This document shows, piece by piece, positions 1,376 to 27,879 of a stretch of 32,000 nt of DNA. The notes below the pieces were generated by a model, which saw nothing but the letters and a program-made list of their open reading frames with translations, was not told where the DNA came from and made no database searches. The stretch covers positions 1,530,001 to 1,562,000 of the forward strand of contig NC_014537.1 of assembly GCF_000148385.1 (NCBI RefSeq), given 5' to 3'. Position 1 is the stretch's first letter. Each line of letters begins with the position of its first letter. Origin of the DNA: Vulcanisaeta distributa DSM 14429 (GTDB lineage Archaea; Thermoproteota; Thermoprotei; Thermoproteales; Thermocladiaceae). The position numbers and the translations under genes were made by a program.

Positions 1376-1474
1376 TGGTGCGGGGGCCGGGATTTGAACC
1401 CGGGACCTCCCGGTTATGAGCCCTACGCGGGGCTGCTGCCCCAGGGCGCTCTAGCCGGGCTAAGCTACCCCCGC
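1376..1474 (-). tRNA. tRNA with anticodon CAT (elongator Met or Ile2). It has an encoded CCA end and a 21-nt intron inside the anticodon stem (about position 29/30; intron at 1423-1443).
   Basis: The reverse complement reads GCGGGGG TA GCTT AGCCCGGCTA GAGC G CCC[TGGGGCAGCAGCCCCGCGTAG]GG CTCATAA CCGGG AGGTC CCGGG TTCAAAT CCCGG CCCCCGC A CCA. All four arms pair once the bracketed insert is removed. The G1-C72 pair argues against an initiator. A TATA-like ttttaaa lies about 30 nt upstream. Confidence 0.9.
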
Positions 1475-2780: not shown

Positions 2781-2890
2781 CTAACTTTTTACTGATTCAT
2801 AATCATGTTATTGTGCTATCGTAGATGTATTAACGAAAGACAGATTGTGTGTTTTATTTTGTATTAGAATTGAGAATTTCTATTATGCTT

Positions 2891-3640
2891 TTATGTTATT
2901 GTCCAGCCACCATCAACGATTATTAGGGCTCCCGTGATATAACTTGCCTCGTCTGAGGCTAAAAATGCGACTACAGACGCTATGTCCTCAGGCTCCGCCA
3001 ACCTCCCCACTGGTATTATTTGTTCCATCATCTTTATTTGTTCCTCACTACCTGGCTGCATTGCGCCTGGCGTCTTGACGGCGCCAGGGGCTATTGCATT
3101 TACGGTTATTCCATAACGGGCTAATTCCAGTGCCAGGGCCCTTGTGAAGCCGACAATGCCGGCCTTGGATGCGCTGTAGTGTGTTAATCCTGCGAAGCCC
3201 ATGGCATTACCTGCTACGGACGCTATGTTTATTATCCTGCCATACTTCTGCTTAACCATGTAGGGGACTACGGCTTTCGTAACATTGAAGGTACCATTTA
3301 AATTCACATTGATCACCCTATACCAGTCATCAAACGTCATTTCAAGGAATGGCTTGAATGGGTATATCCCAGCGTTATTCACCAAGATGTCGATACGGCC
3401 ATACGCGTCATAGACCCTCTTGGCCACGTCCTCAGCCATCCTCGGATCGGTCACATCTAATTTCAGCGCCATTCCCTGACCACCAAGGTTCTTTACTTCA
3501 TTGAGGGTTTCATTTTCCTTGCCCGTTATGTCCGTGACTACGACAATGGCGCCATCCCTCGCCAGCCTTAGGGCGATGCTTCTTCCTATTCCTTGTCCAG
3601 CTCCTGTGACTATTGCGACCTTATTCTTTAATATGGGCAT
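2891..3640 (-). CDS. Short-chain dehydrogenase/reductase (classical SDR, FabG or glucose-1-dehydrogenase-like)
   Basis: It carries TGAGQGIGRS (the TGxxxGxG cofactor motif), NNAG, and the YSASK (YxxxK) catalytic motif. The 249-aa length is typical of the family. Confidence 0.88.
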   Translation of the reverse strand: MPILKNKVAIVTGAGQGIGRSIALRLARDGAIVVVTDITGKENETLNEVKNLGGQGMALKLDVTDPRMAEDVAKRVYDAYGRIDILVNNAGIYPFKPFLEMTFDDWYRVINVNLNGTFNVTKAVVPYMVKQKYGRIINIASVAGNAMGFAGLTHYSASKAGIVGFTRALALELARYGITVNAIAPGAVKTPGAMQPGSEEQIKMMEQIIPVGRLAEPEDIASVVAFLASDEASYITGALIIVDGGWTIT

Positions 3641-6408: not shown

Positions 6409-8271
6409 GTGGATCTAGACGAACTAGCACTATCTGTAATGGGACCACTAATCCTAAGGTTAAGGAATACGAGGATTTACGAAAGGCTTGAGAAAAGCCT
6501 TTCATCATCATTATCATTCACGAGCCCTGAACGTTATTTAGCGAGGGTCTTATTTATAACAACAATAATGCTCGTAATAACGGCTCCACTCGGTATCCTT
6601 CTCATAACGCTAAACCTAAACAATGCATTAATACTACTTAGAATGAAACTCCTCTTTTCAACCCAGTACGGTATTAGGGATCTGGTGCTAATAATCATTG
6701 GTGTTGTCCTCATATTCATGCCATTGATAGTGTATGAAATAATGATTGGAATGCCAAGAATAACCTCAAGTGACCTCGCCTTTAAGGTTGATACTGAATT
6801 ACCGTTTTTCGTGGCCTACGTCTCTGCGATAACAAACTCAGGGCTTTCGGTGTTTAGGGCTGTGGAGAGAATTGCCGAGGCGAAGATACTGGAGGTCGTG
6901 GGTAAGGTGGCTAGGTGGGCATACATTAGGTTTAAGGTCTTTGGTGAGGATCCGTTGACGGCCTTATCAAACGTATCATCTGCAATAGAGAGTAGGATGC
7001 TTAGGGAGTTCATTAGTGGTTACATAACCACGGTTAGGACTGGCGGTGACGTTGTTCACTACATAAACACTAGGCTCCATGACATTGTTAGTAATGCCAT
7101 TGAGCGCATGAATAGGGCCGCCGAGTTCCTTGGAATGCTCATGGAGAGTTACATAGGTTCAGCAGCAATACTCCTAATTGGCTTGGACGTGCTTTACCTG
7201 GCACAGGCCGTGACACCCTTCGGTAATAGGTATGCGGCCTTCATGCAGGCAATAAACTCGAATTACATGTTCGGTCTATTCGTTGTACCTGCAATATCAG
7301 TAGCGTTCATATACCTCGGTGAGGTATCGGCTTTCAGATCACCATACACCGACTATAGGCCCTATAAGTGGGCTGGCGCTTCGTTGACTGTGGCTGTGGT
7401 GCTCGGTGTTCTTGAGTATGTAATGTTATTTCACAGAGATTTGAGTAATAGGATTTATATTCGTGGATTGCCGATTCCATTGGATTTCACGATAGTCTTT
7501 GGCTTAACTCTGGCTTTATCCTTCGTGCCGACCGCGATCTACTCCATGAGGGTTGTTAGTGAGAGGTGGGAGATTGATAGGGAGTATGCGGAGTTTCTTA
7601 GGGATGTGACTGAGTTGAGGAAGAGTGGTTTTACACCTGAGAAGACCTTTGAGACCTTGAAGTACACCAGGAGGTATGGTGCCTTTGATAAGTACCTAGA
7701 TACCATGGTTAGGCAGATTAGGTATGGTGTACCGATTAGGGAGGTCCTATCATCAATAATGCCCAAACTACACAGTTATTACTCAAAGGTCTTTACATTC
7801 CTACTTACCGAGACGATAGACCTTGGTGGTGCATCACCACAGGTCCTTGATATGCTCGCAAGCTTCGCATCGTCAATAGTGAGTGTCCAGGAGAACATGA
7901 GGGCTAGACTAAGGCCTCTGAGGTATGTCCCATACATTGGTGCCGTTATTTTGATAGTTACATTGGTGGTTTTGATATTCTCCGTGGTTGCAATAGTCAC
8001 TAGGGTTGGTCCTGGTGGTGTTGCTGCTGGTGGGCCTACGTCTAGCCCATTAATCAATTTATTAGCCACATCATTCTCCTTCACAATAACGATTGACTCA
8101 TTCATAATGGGATTAATAGCTGGAAAGCTTGGTGAGGGTGAGTTATCCCTTGGGTTTAGGCATGCGGTGGTATTGACGTTGATGGTGGTCCTTGTCTACG
8201 CAATGTCGCCGTTCCTAGCGAATGCGTTGTTTGGTGCCATGTCCACGCCATCAACGAGCGTACCGTATTAA
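6409..8271 (+). CDS. FlaJ/TadC-like polytopic membrane protein (two T2SS-F domains) of an archaeal type IV filament system
   Basis: A 620-aa protein with a GTG start. It has two cytoplasmic helical modules with the GspF/T2SSF pattern (LPFFVAYVSAITNSGLSVFRAVERIA... and EFLRDVTELRKSGFTPEKTFETL...), each followed by TM helices. Confidence 0.65.
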   Translation: MDLDELALSVMGPLILRLRNTRIYERLEKSLSSSLSFTSPERYLARVLFITTIMLVITAPLGILLITLNLNNALILLRMKLLFSTQYGIRDLVLIIIGVVLIFMPLIVYEIMIGMPRITSSDLAFKVDTELPFFVAYVSAITNSGLSVFRAVERIAEAKILEVVGKVARWAYIRFKVFGEDPLTALSNVSSAIESRMLREFISGYITTVRTGGDVVHYINTRLHDIVSNAIERMNRAAEFLGMLMESYIGSAAILLIGLDVLYLAQAVTPFGNRYAAFMQAINSNYMFGLFVVPAISVAFIYLGEVSAFRSPYTDYRPYKWAGASLTVAVVLGVLEYVMLFHRDLSNRIYIRGLPIPLDFTIVFGLTLALSFVPTAIYSMRVVSERWEIDREYAEFLRDVTELRKSGFTPEKTFETLKYTRRYGAFDKYLDTMVRQIRYGVPIREVLSSIMPKLHSYYSKVFTFLLTETIDLGGASPQVLDMLASFASSIVSVQENMRARLRPLRYVPYIGAVILIVTLVVLIFSVVAIVTRVGPGGVAAGGPTSSPLINLLATSFSFTITIDSFIMGLIAGKLGEGELSLGFRHAVVLTLMVVLVYAMSPFLANALFGAMSTPSTSVPY

Positions 8272-23008: not shown

Positions 23009-23287
23009 CTAATCCTCCTCCTGCTCACTCTCAGTTTCGTAAAGATTATCAAGAAGCTGCTTAACATAGTCCTCCTTAAGCTCCTTCTCCTCCTCACTAG
23101 GTTCCTTCTCCTCATAACTCTCTACAATCACTGCACCCTTCTTCTCAATATTCTTCTTATCAACATAGGACTTGGCGTCACTACTCTTTAGTTCCTCCTC
23201 ATAACCACACCTCTGGCACCTAAGGTAAACCTTTCCCTCCCTCTTCACTGGAACCATCAAACCTCCACATCTAGGACAAAATTTCAT
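23009..23287 (-). CDS. TFS/RpoM (Rpb9)-like protein with an N-terminal zinc ribbon and an acidic C-terminal tail. The C-terminal catalytic ribbon is absent.
   Basis: MKFCPRCGGLMVP...LRCQRCGYEEE matches the N-ribbon of archaeal TFS / RNAP subunit M. The remaining ~50 aa are Glu/Lys-rich and contain no second CxxC pair. A TATA-like tttttaagtaag lies about 28 nt upstream. Confidence 0.6.
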   Translation of the reverse strand: MKFCPRCGGLMVPVKREGKVYLRCQRCGYEEELKSSDAKSYVDKKNIEKKGAVIVESYEEKEPSEEEKELKEDYVKQLLDNLYETESEQEED

Positions 23288-23369
23288 TGCGAATTAACGC
23301 AAGCAAAGAACTTACTTAAAAACCTTATGACCACCTTAACCAGGAATTACACAGTCATGAGGGTTACCG

Positions 23370-23410
23370 CCACACAGCCTCGGCTTGCCGAGTTTGCGTG
23401 TGTTGTGTGG
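23370..23410. other. Extended hairpin with a CUUG-type tetraloop
   Basis: ccacaca (23370-76) pairs with tgtgtgg (23404-10). The inner stem ctcgg/ccgag (23379-83 with 23388-92) closes the loop cttg. Confidence 0.4.
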
Positions 23411-23513
23411 TTTATGGCTGTTACGTTCGTGGGTTGTGAATAATACGTTATGACTAATCGCCGCCATGCGATGCGTTTCTCCGTGAAAGGCTCAACACCG
23501 ATTTCGGGAAGGC

Positions 23514-23521
23514 TATATAAA
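23514..23521 (+). promoter_or_regulatory. Strong TATA-like element (tatataaa) preceded by a purine-rich, BRE-like gggaagg. No ORF lies downstream.
   Basis: Read directly from the sequence. About 25-30 nt downstream begins a GC-rich structured stretch (ggggttgac...). This would fit an ncRNA promoter or a long-leader promoter. Confidence 0.35.
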
Positions 23522-23561
23522 CTACTTAGTTATTTTAGGGGTTGACTGATTTAGGCGATGA

Positions 23562-23615
23562 GCCCCCGAGGTATAGCGCCCGGGATTTGCCTGGGCGAAT
23601 TCCTCGGCTTTGGGT
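23562..23615. other. 54-nt GC-rich three-segment hairpin
   Basis: gccc/gggt (23562-65 with 23612-15), ccgagg/cctcgg (23566-71 with 23602-07) and cgcccggg/cctgggcg (23577-84 with 23590-97) surround the loop atttg. The G-T pairs are consistent with plus-strand RNA. Confidence 0.45.
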
Positions 23616-23737
23616 GATCCACCGCGACCGCTCCCGTGGGTAGTGTAGGGACTCGAGTGATGAAAAGCTCATTGAATGCATATGCAGTAAGTACAATGGC
23701 TATGATAACGATGCCGATGATAATAACAACTCAACTG

Positions 23738-23784
23738 CTTAATTACTTAGCTGTTAAGACTCCTAATCACTTAGCCGTTAAGAT
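23738..23784. repeat. Tandem direct repeat, two 23-nt units with a 24-nt period
   Basis: cttaattacttagctgttaagac (23738-60) and cctaatcacttagccgttaagat (23762-84) are identical at 19 of 23 positions. Confidence 0.8.
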
Positions 23785-23789
23785 GCTTA

Positions 23790-23955
23790 TTCCCCAAGCC
23801 CTTCCCTCGGTCCCACTCCCTCCCTCTCTTCCCGAAGCCGAGGCCTCCCTGGTCAGGGGGGCTCTCGGCACGTGAGGCCGGGCCGTGAGGAAGACGAGCC
23901 CCGAAACGGCAACCAGTAACGGCGGGAAGTTAGGTTTGAGGGAAGGGCTTGGGAA
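23790..23955. other. 166-nt GC-rich nested four-helix element, a candidate structured ncRNA of unknown class
   Basis: Four helices nest in order. The outer helix pairs cccaagcccttccctc (23793-808) with gagggaagggcttggg (23938-53), 16 perfect bp. Then cttcccg (23828-34) pairs with cgggaag (23923-29), ctggt (23849-53) with accag (23912-16), and ggggctc (23858-64) with gagcccc (23896-902). An apical cacg/cgtg stem closes the structure. The 60-nt line starting at 23821 is 43/60 G+C by hand count. Confidence 0.5.
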
Positions 23956-24041
23956 TTGAGTGCCTAAATGCAATTATGTACAGCAGTCCCTAGGCTGAAG
24001 AGGATAAAGTGTGATTAATTCATGTGGAGATTAAGAATTTG

Positions 24042-24059
24042 TTTCACGAAAACGTGAAA
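24042..24059. promoter_or_regulatory. Perfect palindrome tttcacg-aaaa-cgtgaaa, either an operator-like site or a small hairpin
   Basis: A 7-bp inverted repeat with a 4-nt spacer, read directly. It lies in the AT-rich stretch about 180 nt upstream of the ORF at 24241, next to the A/T-rich aaaaagttattaatg. Confidence 0.35.
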
Positions 24060-24099
24060 AAGTTATTAATGAATTCCCCAATACCCTAGCAAAATGGCA

Positions 24100-24211
24100 A
24101 GCAATTCCTGGGGAATTGCTGGATAAGTTGCTTTGTCAAGCCCCGTGGGCTCCTCACGGGGCGCCAACCCATTTTCAGTTCTGGGTGGCACGGCTCCGTG
24201 GGGATCGCCCA
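24100..24211. other. Cluster of four consecutive GC-rich hairpins immediately upstream of the 24241 ORF
   Basis: The stems are agcaattcc/ggaattgct (24100-20), gccccgtg/cacggggc (24140-62, 8 bp with a 7-nt loop), gccaaccca/tgggtggc (24163-89, one bulge), and tggg/ccca (24199-211). Confidence 0.45.
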
Positions 24212-24240
24212 TGGGGCATGAGGCATCAAGGTGAGGGAGT

Positions 24241-25665
24241 ATGGAGGGTGGAGAGAAGCGAATAAACGAGCCAAATAAAAACAAAGGGGAGGGAGAGGGA
24301 CCAAGGAAGGGCAGGGAAATACGCAAGCCACCAAATGAGGGCATCGACGACAACGCACCAAGTGAGGAGGAGGTTAGGGCGGCTATTTTGGAGCTTATTA
24401 AGAGACTGAGGAGGCATGAGGATGTGATTAGGAGTGGTAAGATGTTTAGTGAGATCAAGGCTGAGTTGGGGAGGTTGAGGAATGAGGTTGCGAAGTATGG
24501 CATTGATGGTTTTGAGAGGGTATTTGATGAAATGGAGAAATACGTCATGAGGGTAGAGGAGAAGTTCAAGAGGTACCATGCTAAGGAAATTCAAGGTCTC
24601 GTTGAAGAAATCGAACGGGGACAGATAAAACCAAAGGGAAGATCAATTAGATCTAGGTATATAACCCTGAGTTTTTCAACACCAAGCTATCAAGCAACAT
24701 ATCAAATATTGCTCAAGAAAATTGGGAGCATAACTGTCAAGGCACCCAAAGTTTTGCCGTACGATGTAATTACGCCACTGCAGTGGGGACTACTATTAAG
24801 CGACGCCACGGTGAGGATCTATTACCCAGCTATGGAGACTGTGAGCATGTTTCAGATCATGCTATTTATGTTAGCGTTTCCAGGTAGAATACGAATAGAT
24901 GCTACAAAGCTTGATGTTAATAAAGACGGCGTAAAAATAGTATGGCGTGTAGAATCAAAGGACTGGGACCCACCATCGTTGCCTGAGTGTGAGGATGAGG
25001 ATGAGTGTCAGCAAATTAATGAGGAGGATGCGTATATCGCATTATTTGCAGGTTTGATGGGAGATGGCTCATTTGGTACAATAAGGAGAAGGAATCACGT
25101 TTATCCAAGGATTCGTTTGACGACGACAGAAAAATATAGATGGGAACCGATACTAAAGAGTATAAAGATAAAGTATTATGAAGAACCTTATAAAAATGGC
25201 ATAATAAATATTACGTTTTGTTGTTCATATGCTGTTGAACTAATGCAAAGAATTAAGGGTATCTTTGTAGGAAAAGCACCAATATTGTTAAGATTGCTAG
25301 ATATATTAGTTAATGAAACAAAGATAGAAAGAGTAAGACACATTATGAACATGGAGATTAGGAAGTTGGGAGAGTTTAGTGTGGAATTGCTTGGCTATTT
25401 ATTTCATGTGAATATAAGTGGCAGTTGGAGTATTATGTTCATGAAAAGGATGAGTGATGTAGAGAGAGCGAATGCAATAGCAACAGAGGTCGCGCAATAT
25501 TACGGGCTTAGTAATGATGATATTAAGGTTTATCCTGAGTCCCATGCCATAATAATAAAGCCATCAGGCATACTAAAAATAATAATGAGGGATGAGAAGG
25601 TAAAGGAGGAAACCATAAGAGTACTCTGCAAAAATATCAAGACGAGAAGAGAAAAAGTAAAATAA
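24241..25665 (+). CDS. Free-standing protein with two LAGLIDADG-like motifs and a charged coiled-coil N-terminal extension. It may be a homing-endonuclease-derived protein. The start codon is uncertain.
   Basis: The second motif, DAYIALFAGLMGDGSFGTIRRR, fits the LAGLIDADG helix plus a beta-strand. An upstream degenerate copy (PLQWGLLLSDATVRIYY) lies about 90 aa earlier, as in double-motif monomeric enzymes. The N-terminal ~130 aa are Lys/Glu/Arg-rich. The first ~30 codons overlap a repeated non-coding motif. The 3' two-thirds is AT-rich (18/60 G+C in the line starting at 25141). Confidence 0.55.
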   Translation: MEGGEKRINEPNKNKGEGEGPRKGREIRKPPNEGIDDNAPSEEEVRAAILELIKRLRRHEDVIRSGKMFSEIKAELGRLRNEVAKYGIDGFERVFDEMEKYVMRVEEKFKRYHAKEIQGLVEEIERGQIKPKGRSIRSRYITLSFSTPSYQATYQILLKKIGSITVKAPKVLPYDVITPLQWGLLLSDATVRIYYPAMETVSMFQIMLFMLAFPGRIRIDATKLDVNKDGVKIVWRVESKDWDPPSLPECEDEDECQQINEEDAYIALFAGLMGDGSFGTIRRRNHVYPRIRLTTTEKYRWEPILKSIKIKYYEEPYKNGIINITFCCSYAVELMQRIKGIFVGKAPILLRLLDILVNETKIERVRHIMNMEIRKLGEFSVELLGYLFHVNISGSWSIMFMKRMSDVERANAIATEVAQYYGLSNDDIKVYPESHAIIIKPSGILKIIMRDEKVKEETIRVLCKNIKTRREKVK

Positions 25666-25711: not shown

Positions 25712-26311
25712 ATGTCTGAGTCGCCAGCTACTCAGGAGAACTGGATAGGCGTCAATGGTAGGTCGGTTAGGTATCTGGTATATGGTGATGGTAAACCCAT
25801 GGTCATGGTTCATGGATATAACTTCAACGCTAATGACTGGATTAACTGCTGCGGTAATGACTTCCCTGGGTTTAAAATATATGCGTTGGATATGCCCTAT
25901 GGACCTAGGTCGAGGAGTGATCACTTCATGCCTAAGGATGATAATGATTATGCCAATCACCTACATGCCATAATTAAGGCGTTGGGCATTGAAAACCCGA
26001 TACTTATTGGCGCGAGTTTGGGTGGCGAGACCGTACTTAGGTACCTAGCGCTTAACTACCCAGCGACTGCGGGTATAGTTATTGGTCCCGTGAGGGTACC
26101 CAGTATTGACCTGTCAAGGATAAGGGTTCCCGTAATGGGTATTTGGGGGAGTAATGATAAGGTCTCGGGTAGGGAGAACATGGAGGCCATGAGGAGGGCC
26201 GGCTTTAGGGTTGAGGTGATCAATGGAGCTGGTCACCCTGCTTACCTCGATAAGCCCAGGGAATTCGTGAGGTTAGTGCTTGATTTTTTAAGGTCCATTA
26301 ATGTCATTTAG
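25712..26311 (+). CDS. Alpha/beta-fold hydrolase
   Basis: It has HGYNF (oxyanion region), the nucleophile elbow GASLGG (GxSxG), and a C-terminal GAGHPAYLDKP (catalytic His region). At 199 aa it is compact. Confidence 0.75.
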   Translation: MSESPATQENWIGVNGRSVRYLVYGDGKPMVMVHGYNFNANDWINCCGNDFPGFKIYALDMPYGPRSRSDHFMPKDDNDYANHLHAIIKALGIENPILIGASLGGETVLRYLALNYPATAGIVIGPVRVPSIDLSRIRVPVMGIWGSNDKVSGRENMEAMRRAGFRVEVINGAGHPAYLDKPREFVRLVLDFLRSINVI

Positions 26312-27780: not shown

Positions 27781-27879
27781 TGGAGCCCCGGCCGGGATTC
27801 GAACCCGGGACCTCCCGCTTACAAGGCTTGCACGGGGCTGCCGCCCCAGGGCGCTCCGACCAGGCTGAGCTACCGGGGC
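27781..27879 (-). tRNA. tRNA-Thr (anticodon TGT) with an encoded CCA end and a 21-nt intron inside the anticodon stem (about position 29/30; intron at 27828-27848)
   Basis: The reverse complement reads GCCCCGG TA GCTC AGCCTGGTCG GAGC G CCC[TGGGGCGGCAGCCCCGTGCAA]GC CTTGTAA GCGGG AGGTC CCGGG TTCGAAT CCCGG CCGGGGC T CCA. A TATA-like cttaaaatt lies about 25 nt upstream. Confidence 0.9.

Follow-up and report, generated by a model that had tools for sequence, protein, structure and literature searches.

What is a GC-rich segment that closes on itself by a long perfect helix doing in the non-coding DNA of an AT-rich thermophile? The question is raised by a 32,000-nucleotide (nt) stretch of Vulcanisaeta distributa DSM 14429 (contig NC_014537.1, positions 1,530,001 to 1,562,000; hereafter the window), and the segment in question is referred to here as element C. 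In AT-rich hyperthermophiles, a guanine plus cytosine (G+C) content like that of transfer RNAs (tRNAs) is a classic signature of stable RNA, and Klein, Misulovin and Eddy are said to have found, in 2002, GC-rich stable non-coding RNAs (ncRNAs) as G+C islands in such organisms. The initial annotation of the locus took C for an element resembling a stable hyperthermophile ncRNA. Its core intuition was right: the element is real, conserved and structured. What found no support was the idea of a stand-alone ncRNA of a general class. C is one domain of an RNA module carried by a strain-specific cassette, ahead of an open reading frame (ORF) of a multi-copy family, orf2, and it is not a cellular housekeeping RNA. 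Comparison of the sequences leads us to give about one chance in two to the reading in which C acts in cis, as a leader or intercistronic RNA domain of the cassette transcript.

The closing helix of C, termed P1, is a perfect Watson-Crick helix of 16 base pairs (bp) that bounds the GC-rich element and whose arms reach 23 nt once mismatches are counted (the positions of all features are given in Table 1). That such a helix is very unlikely to arise by chance, as had been claimed from its length, was borne out in several ways: a search for perfect inverted repeats of at least 14 bp with a loop of at most 300 nt found P1 alone in the window, a 16-bp inverted repeat appeared in 0 of 40 first-order Markov simulations, and in 1000 shuffles of the two 60-nt arms the longest helix was 11 bp. 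Relative to dinucleotide shuffles, C folds significantly on both strands (z-scores of -4.2 on the + strand and -3.9 on the - strand), and in the thermodynamic ensemble the pairing probability of P1 is 0.93-0.99. The 7-bp helix P2 has a probability of 0.72 at 37 C and of 0.11 at 85 C.

The interior of C had been drawn as a strict nest of helices around an apical stem. The stretches in question all exist and are fully Watson-Crick complementary (5 bp between 23849-23853 and 23912-23916, 7 bp between 23858-23864 and 23896-23902, and the apical CACG/CGTG at 23869-23872 and 23884-23887), and the direct repeat cgtgagg stands at exactly 23871-77 and 23884-90, as first read. However, the nest is not the favoured fold, since the probability of the three inner helices in the ensemble is close to zero, because the 14-bp hairpin P3 (23837-23869) is much more stable; it is also P3, rather than the nest, that the relatives of C conserve.

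The G+C content of C is 65.7% over 23790-23955 and 66.7% in its core, as against a window mean of 43.8%; the value of about 72% first given for the core was too high, and only the best 80-nt stretch comes to 73.8%. A threshold of at least 64% G+C over 80 nt is reached in the whole window only by three tRNAs, which are also the only genes that ARAGORN finds there, and by three islands of a single intergenic region, B, C and D. The tract 23793-23834, previously described as some 35 nt of almost pure pyrimidine, has pyrimidines at 35 of its 42 positions. Perfect 12-bp inverted repeats with a loop under 300 nt are found elsewhere in the window only at 7642/7782 and 10622/10760.

Is this structure conserved? 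The non-coding region of the window was compared by BLASTN and nhmmer with 16 loci of the orf2 family, and C was found in three other Vulcanisaeta genomes, at loci L026 (JCM 14467), L027 (JCM 11216) and L022 (a metagenome-assembled genome, MAG). Its closing helix is present in 4/4 loci, counting that of the window, although the sequences of the arms are unrelated. With strict match/mismatch scoring, each 5' arm pairs better with the 3' arm of its own locus (scores of 33, 45, 28 and 27) than arms do across loci, no score in the same row or column reaching that of the locus itself; local dinucleotide shuffles matched the four scores 0, 0, 16 and 7 times in 500. Here, it is structure and not sequence that is conserved.

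Within the closing helix it is P3 that is conserved in sequence. An alignment of full-length C with MAFFT and RNAalifold recovers P3 reliably but not P1. The 3' strand of P3 is nearly invariant (AGGGGGGCUCYCGGC), while its 5' strand varies by C/U exchanges opposite the invariant run of G; these C-G/U-G exchanges preserve pairing on the + strand only. A covariance model of the C core, built around P3, scores the three + strand copies used for training at 85-87 bits and detects nothing else in 201 kb of Vulcanisaeta DNA beyond weak echoes on the reverse strand.

The islands on either side of C add independent support for a constraint at the RNA level on the module as a whole. Of the pairs that RNAalifold predicts, 7 of 23 in island B and 8 of 27 in island D show compensatory changes; folding is more stable on the + strand than on the - strand in 3/4 loci for B and in 4/4 for D. 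B, C and D occur in the same order, on the strand of orf2 and ahead of it, in L026, L027 and L022. The GAUGAG and UGAUCC motifs of B may form a kink-turn-like (K-turn-like), C/D-like protein-binding motif. A second B-like copy lies just ahead of orf1 in L026 (1896-1995), and two more, encoded on the other strand, follow different orf2 genes (L020, 5939-6003, -; L031, 4606-4662, -); these extra copies in family loci suggest that B forms a repeat in its own right.

Between B and C, L026 and L022 carry a further ORF, orf1, of about 205-240 amino acids (aa) depending on the ATG or GTG start that is taken. In the window and in L027, orf1 has been lost and its stop context ACTTAGCC has been kept. 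The order of the cassette in the window is therefore B, orf1 remnant, C, D, a Shine-Dalgarno-like site and orf2; in complete copies, C begins a few bases past the orf1 stop codon and 250-550 nt ahead of the orf2 start. Immediately before C in the window, a 24-nt tandem duplication, TAATTACTTAGCTGTTAAGACTCC / TAATCACTTAGCCGTTAAGATGCT (23740-23787), corresponds to the stop-codon context of the lost orf1.

The module lies in a segment that relatives lack. Homology between the window and related Vulcanisaeta loci ends at 23366 and restarts twice, near 25651, where 15 nt of the former spacer are identical, and again at 25736; the segment from about 23367 to 25650 is therefore an insertion, the right border of which can be placed approximately, between 25636 and 25650. 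The two genes that flank it, RPB9-like and abhydrolase, are 2.4 kb apart in the window but about 100-125 bp apart in 14 related loci, drawn from two assemblies of Vulcanisaeta sp. JCM 14467, V. distributa JCM 11217, three metagenome contigs and seven MAG contigs; the empty site of L001, for example, is at 2858-2922. In two further loci a different gene adjoins the RPB9-like gene after about 55 bp. All told, the corresponding site lacks the segment in 16 related Vulcanisaeta loci, where the flanks lie about 55-125 bp apart. No terminal repeat or target-site duplication was found flanking either C or the 2.3-kb insertion. About 870 nt of the insertion are non-coding and hold the three G+C islands, after which come the Shine-Dalgarno-like site and orf2.

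The copy in the window is degenerate, since orf1 is deleted and the 3' end of orf2 is cut off: the stop codon of orf2 falls at the right insertion junction and the last 25 or so residues of the family are lacking, which indicates truncation at the insertion border. The cassette is probably selfish, mobile and confined to Vulcanisaeta. Two assembly features fall within C itself. One public contig starts inside it (position 1 of L008 corresponds to 23886 of the window), and in the MAG of L022 a gap of 104 N (2657-2760) covers exactly the core of the C homologue. This suggests that the GC-rich hairpin region is hard to assemble and that copies of C may be under-represented in draft genomes.

The orf2 gene appeared to be an orphan in word-indexed protein searches, and only an exhaustive HMMER search revealed its family, which consists of 59 clusters 22-37% identical to orf2; those members with names that were examined are all Vulcanisaeta hypothetical proteins. 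The 16 family loci came from a profile-guided scan of one genome per species. Vulcanisaeta sp. JCM 14467 has at least nine of them and V. distributa JCM 11217 has four; one is from JCM 11216, and MAGs supply two. Besides an invariant GDG, the alignment contains a second motif, P.M.T.Q.WQ..LW.LLYPG. In those members that have the B/C/D module, an N-terminal extension, NKN.GEGEGPR.GRE, encoded by GA-rich DNA, shows about 70% identity, as against about 30% over the rest of the proteins. This observation suggests either that the nucleotide sequence is under constraint or that the 5' module has recombined.

The nature of the orf2 protein is less clear from its sequence. Pfam gave no match to the orf2 of the window at an expectation value (E) of up to 10, and neither orf2 nor 27 family members contain a RuvC, HNH, TnpB or DEDD domain according to Pfam. 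One of the 27 members matches PaRep2b (PF07775) weakly, with an E of 2.5e-4 and below the gathering score, and another matches LAGLIDADG_2 with an E of 1.3e-3. In the family profile, the helix with GDG aligns with each of the two LAGLIDADG motifs of an I-DmoI/I-CreI chimera, again weakly (E 0.16), and a search of the sequences of the Protein Data Bank (PDB) with this profile brought weak matches only. Two AlphaFold models, with confidence scores (pLDDT) of 40.6 and 38.9, were too poor to bear on the fold. The family carries a weak LAGLIDADG-like or PaREP2b-like signal.

How might C act? In the reading we prefer, the + strand of the cassette would be transcribed as a single RNA in which P1 encloses the CU-rich strand J1, the conserved P3 hairpin and a variable region. 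In a closed form, the CU-rich 5' strand of C would pair with its own 3' arm; in an alternative form, the same strand would pair with the GA-rich Shine-Dalgarno region and with codons 16-27 of orf2. A toggle between the two might tune the translation, processing or stability of the orf2 message, by analogy with the fold-back structures that act on transposase messenger RNAs (mRNAs). C would then be of the kind of ORF-associated or leader RNA structures found with selfish genes.

It is the combination of a TATA-like box before B, the location of C after the orf1 stop, the Shine-Dalgarno motif before orf2 and the dual complementarity of the CU-rich strand that leads us to prefer a role in cis. 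Boxes like that of the window stand at a comparable distance before B in L027, L026 and L022, and the promoters of the tRNAs in the window have similar ones. C lies on the sense strand, past the orf1 stop and before the Shine-Dalgarno motif and ATG in L026 and L022, and between B and orf2 in the window and in L027; G-U pairs in P3, B and D favour folding of this strand. In 4/4 loci, D ends about 20 nt ahead of a GGTGA Shine-Dalgarno motif and the orf2 ATG. In crenarchaeal translation, a Shine-Dalgarno motif is characteristic of leadered or internal cistrons.

The complementarity is of two sorts. Firstly, the 5' arm of C is complementary to positions +46 to +81 of orf2 in three loci. In the window, the 5' strand of C matches at 31 of 37 positions, which exceeds its match to its own 3' arm and was equalled in 0/500 shuffles; the arm of L027 matches at 20/22 (1/500 shuffles), and that of L026, a marginal case, at 16/19 by Watson-Crick pairing (20/500 shuffles) or 19/19 if the mismatches are read as G-U compatible. 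Secondly, J1 is complementary over 8-10 nt to GAGGGAG(U/A) at the orf2 start codon in 3/4 loci.

Several observations weigh against this role in cis. The 5' arm of L022 shows no complementarity to the orf2 coding region (75/500 shuffles), the duplex energies of pairing with the coding region do not distinguish one locus from another, and the match between J1 and the Shine-Dalgarno region is generic rather than specific to each locus. When G-U pairs and loops are allowed for by an energy model (RNAduplex), the arms of P1 pair almost equally well across loci; the arms being CU-rich and GA-rich, MAFFT misaligns them, and covariation in P1 cannot be counted pair by pair. C alone folds about equally on both strands in 2/3 loci. 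The comparison extends to four loci, one of which is gapped over the core of C and one of which has a disrupted orf2, and most of the orf2 family loci inspected have no B/C/D module at all. Finally, L026 has strong TATA-like boxes in the stretch that separates C from D, so that the orf2 mRNA could start past C, in which case C would be a 3' element of the orf1/B transcript.

The main alternative to a cis-acting domain is that C, alone or with B and D, is processed to a stable RNA that acts in trans, either as a partner of the orf2 protein (a scaffold, guide or folding substrate of a ribonucleoprotein, comparable to the omega-RNA of IscB/TnpB, the bridge RNA of IS110 or an intron RNA with its LAGLIDADG maturase) or through repression of paralogous GA-rich mRNAs by its CU-rich strand. 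We regard this as unlikely, though far from negligible. It would explain why the G+C content of C equals that of the tRNAs and why a structured region of several hundred nt is physically tied to a multi-copy, insertion-prone ORF; the GAUGAG...UGAUCC of B looks like a protein-binding K-turn, conservation in the GA-rich N-terminal coding segment far exceeds that in the rest of the protein, and the GDG motif of the orf2 protein is reminiscent, if weakly, of LAGLIDADG proteins. However, the context directly before C is that of the orf1 stop, with no promoter-like box, and no terminator-like site was found. The orf2 protein lacks RuvC, HNH, DEDD and any Pfam domain above threshold, and the RNA module is missing from most family members. 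The RNA and the flanks of the insertion share one 9-mer, where about one is expected by chance, and the idea that the RNA encodes the insertion target was rejected on this ground.

A more ambitious version of the same idea, which we consider quite unlikely, is that B, C and D together constitute the RNA component of an undescribed RNA-protein mobile element of Thermoproteales, the LAGLIDADG-like orf2 protein of which would need its own upstream RNA, as guide, scaffold or partner of the maturase type, to move or act. The closest models are the HEARO/omega-RNA of IscB, the right-end RNA of TnpB and the bridge RNA of IS110, where, as here, a structured RNA of a few hundred nt lies beside a multi-copy ORF on the same strand; the likeness extends to the appearance of this ORF as a strain-specific insertion. 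In contrast to those systems, orf2 has none of the RuvC, HNH, TnpB and DEDD domains, the RNA has no Rfam match and no guide-like match to the flanks, and most family members go without it. If this reading were true, the cassette would be an archaeal counterpart of IscB/omega-RNA or IS110/bridge-RNA with a different protein fold.

Another possibility, very unlikely in our view, is that C is a decaying, functionless relic, in which GC-rich, low-complexity CU and GA tracts derived from foreign or duplicated DNA pair by accident. The degenerate state of the cassette copy, with its deleted orf1 and its orf2 cut off at the 3' end, points in that direction, as do the orf2 of L027, a pseudogene, and the promiscuous pairing of CU-rich with GA-rich tracts. 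Yet a perfect 16-bp helix survives in precisely this degenerate copy, a closing helix is kept in four loci with different sequences, and conservation extends to P3, B and D, where compensatory or wobble changes occur.

The inverted repeats could instead act at the level of the DNA, as the terminal repeats of a miniature inverted-repeat transposable element (MITE), as single-strand transposition hairpins or as sites of recombination or replication. A 166-bp unit with inverted ends of 16-23 bp inside a strain-specific insertion has the look of such an element; a sequence resembling a third arm is present at 24286-24321, C contains a break or gap in two assemblies, and the PaREP2b genes of Pyrobaculum have been termed putative transposons (PMC3558965). 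Against this, the arm sequences differ entirely between homologous loci while pairing is kept, which fits selection on the fold and not an end recognised by a protein. MITE or transposon repeats would be expected in several near-identical copies, but C has no second copy in the window or in the 201 kb of Vulcanisaeta DNA, and neither it nor the insertion is bordered by a target-site duplication or terminal repeat; the arms are internal to the cassette rather than at its ends, and the helices that depend on G-U pairs (P3, B and D) favour one strand. A role of this sort is hardly probable.

A housekeeping ncRNA, be it a reduced ribonuclease P (RNase P) RNA, an RNA like that of the signal recognition particle (SRP), a guide RNA of the H/ACA or C/D type or some new universal class, is almost certainly not what C is: tRNA-like G+C content and a significant fold are as expected of one, but C has no Rfam match, is missing from the syntenic site in 16 related loci, gave no match in degenerate scans of species genomes and metagenomes, and occurs only beside one repeated gene family.

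The searches behind this dismissal were of several kinds. Rfam models run with cmscan gave no match at the gathering score in the whole window, none at an E of up to 10 in 23300-24500 and none at an E of up to 1 in L026 and L027. In the window and in these two homologues, this includes the models of RNase P RNA, among them the reduced type T of Thermoproteales, and the archaeal covariance model of SRP RNA, in agreement with the initial annotation, which had seen the hallmarks of neither; on C itself, no guide small RNA (sRNA) of the C/D or H/ACA type was matched in Rfam. A sub-threshold SNORD24-like match (19.6 bits as against a gathering score of 41) lies outside C, at 23677-23739. C was also translated into a "pseudo-protein" and used as a degenerate nucleotide probe of viral, genome and metagenome collections; no copy was found in the viral sequences, in 185,579 species genomes or in metagenomes, a scan that did not recover the source locus itself either. 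By BLAST, phage and plasmid collections contained nothing similar to the non-coding part or to orf2. An exact scan of viral contigs for the P3 motif returned 28 matches with no relative among them; nhmmer, applied again to these, found neither B nor D and C only once, weakly (E 0.06), and the orf2 family profile found nothing in viral contigs. Neither Rfam nor the papers on Vulcanisaeta or PaREP genes that could be searched were found to describe an RNA of this sort.

Returning to the cis-acting reading, its closest parallels are the fold-back inhibition and the 5' leader structures of the transposase mRNAs of IS10, IS50 and similar elements. As in those leaders, a stretch lying upstream on the same strand is complementary to the region where translation of a selfish gene begins, and alternative pairings are possible. 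Unlike them, C is much larger, has several domains, is GC-rich, is conserved as structure and belongs to an archaeal host, and it is codons 16-27, not just the ribosome-binding site, to which it is most complementary. With the ncRNAs of the G+C islands it shares an identical compositional signature, only tRNAs and the three islands exceeding 64%, but it differs from them in that it does not occupy a fixed chromosomal locus, is tied to a repeated gene and has no family assignment. The lesson is that, in AT-rich thermophiles, a G+C island predicts a folded RNA well, but not a housekeeping RNA gene.

Two other archaeal systems are worth comparing. The introns of archaeal ribosomal RNA (rRNA) genes that carry LAGLIDADG genes, such as that of I-DmoI, are mobile insertions in which, as in this probably mobile cassette, a GC-rich structured RNA accompanies an ORF with a LAGLIDADG-like GDG motif; the cassette, however, lies in an intergenic promoter region and not in an rRNA or tRNA gene, and the 474-aa orf2 product is below every Pfam threshold. 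No bulge-helix-bulge junction was seen at P1 by eye, and no formal scan was made for one. The PaREP2b family of Pyrobaculum resembles that of orf2 in being a lineage-restricted, multi-copy family of Thermoproteales found in strain-specific regions. The difference is that just 1/27 orf2 family members has a weak match to it and that no RNA element is described for PaREP2b in the literature searched.

To our knowledge, long structured leaders have rarely been described for crenarchaeal mRNAs, and we know of little on the mobility and control of repeated genes of the "PaREP" type in Thermoproteales. For one such cassette, the present locus offers a clean comparison between filled and empty sites, together with three conserved, thermostable RNA structures attached to the cassette. 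If C acts in cis, it would be a case of a selfish archaeal gene controlled by mRNA structure at about 85-90 C; if it is instead the partner of a protein, it would represent a new class of ORF-associated RNA.

Table 1. Features of the cassette and of its homologues; positions are those of the window unless a locus is named.
Feature	Position	Strand	Sequence or content	Evidence or remark
Cassette (insertion), ~2.3 kb	23367..~25650	+	from RPB9-like gene (23009-23287, -) to abhydrolase gene (25712-26311, +)	
Putative cassette promoter	23513..23521	+	TATA-like box CTATATAAA	about 35-45 nt upstream of B
Island B	23548..23663	+	conserved hairpin flanked by GAUGAG (23557-23562) and GGGUGAUCCA (23612-23621)	nhmmer: L027, L026 (twice), L022
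orf1 remnant	23636..23790	+	includes stop context ACTTAGCC, duplicated in tandem at 23740-23787	intact orf1 in L026, L022
Island C, structured RNA domain	23786..23960	+		fold and homologues
C, P1 5' arm	23793-23808	+	CCCAAGCCCUUCCCUC (given also as CCCAAGCCCTTCCCTC)	inverted-repeat search, fold
C, J1	23809-23827	+	CU-rich anti-Shine-Dalgarno-like strand, two overlapping CUCCCUC copies	mostly unpaired in predicted fold
C, P2 5' arm	23828-23834	+	CUUCCCG	partner 23923-23929
C, P3 hairpin	23837-23869	+	GCCGAGGCCUCCCU-GGUC-AGGGGGGCUCUCGGC, 14 bp	sequence-conserved core of C
C, junction motif	23903-23910	+	GAAACGGC; GAAACGRC in homologues	conserved
C, P2 3' arm	23923-23929	+	CGGGAAG	partner 23828-23834
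C, P1 3' arm	23938-23953	+	GAGGGAAGGGCUUGGG	pairs with 23793-23808
Spacer motif	23981-23995	+	CAGCAGTCCCTAGGC	identical in L027, 3125-3139
Island D	24137..24222	+	~86-nt near-perfect GC-rich hairpin holding conserved GGGGCGCCAAC	four loci
Shine-Dalgarno-like site	24230..24239	+	GGTGAGGGAG, directly before ATG 24241	GGTGA at same place in L026, L027, L022
orf2	24241..25665	+	474-codon ORF, invariant GDG in AxLGDG	family alignment, HMMER
GA-rich segment of orf2	24286..24321	+	encodes conserved GEGEGPRKGRE	31/37 complementary to C 5' strand 23788-23825
L026 (JCM 14467)	B 956-1072, C 2716-2950, D 3098-3265			BLASTN/nhmmer
L027 (JCM 11216)	B 2586-2704, C 2833-3082, D 3271-3395			BLASTN/nhmmer
L022 (MAG UBA163)	B 1825-1913, C about 2588-2800, D 3051-3155			104-N gap over core of C
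Closing-helix arms, window			CCCAAGCCCUUCCCUC / GAGGGAAGGGCUUGGG	
Closing-helix arms, L026			CCCUGCCUG.CUCCCUGGCCUU... / ...AAGGCCAGGGA.ACAGGCGGGG	about 30 bp
Closing-helix arms, L027			GCCCUCCCUGCCUCUCUUC... / ...GAAGAGGGGGGGUAGGGAGGGC	
Closing-helix arms, L022			CCUCAAACCCC(C)UACCU / AGGUAGGGGUUUGAGG	

A few further observations concern the surroundings of the module. Two of the tRNA genes of the window, at 1376-1474 (-) and 27781-27879 (-), each contain an insertion of about 32 nt, presumably an intron, and the anticodon of the latter could not be assigned by ARAGORN. GC islands near L030 and L033 were considered as copies of the module and rejected, as they are ordinary coding sequence. 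These two regions, which precede family members without the B/C/D module, do contain canonical-looking candidates for a C/D box sRNA (ATGACGA ... CTGA ... GTGATGA ... CTGA), at about 3297-3347 in L033 and about 3333-3378 in L030. Finally, the AT-rich spacer that separates C and D in the window carries a palindrome, TTTCACG-AAAA-CGTGAAA, at 24042-24059.

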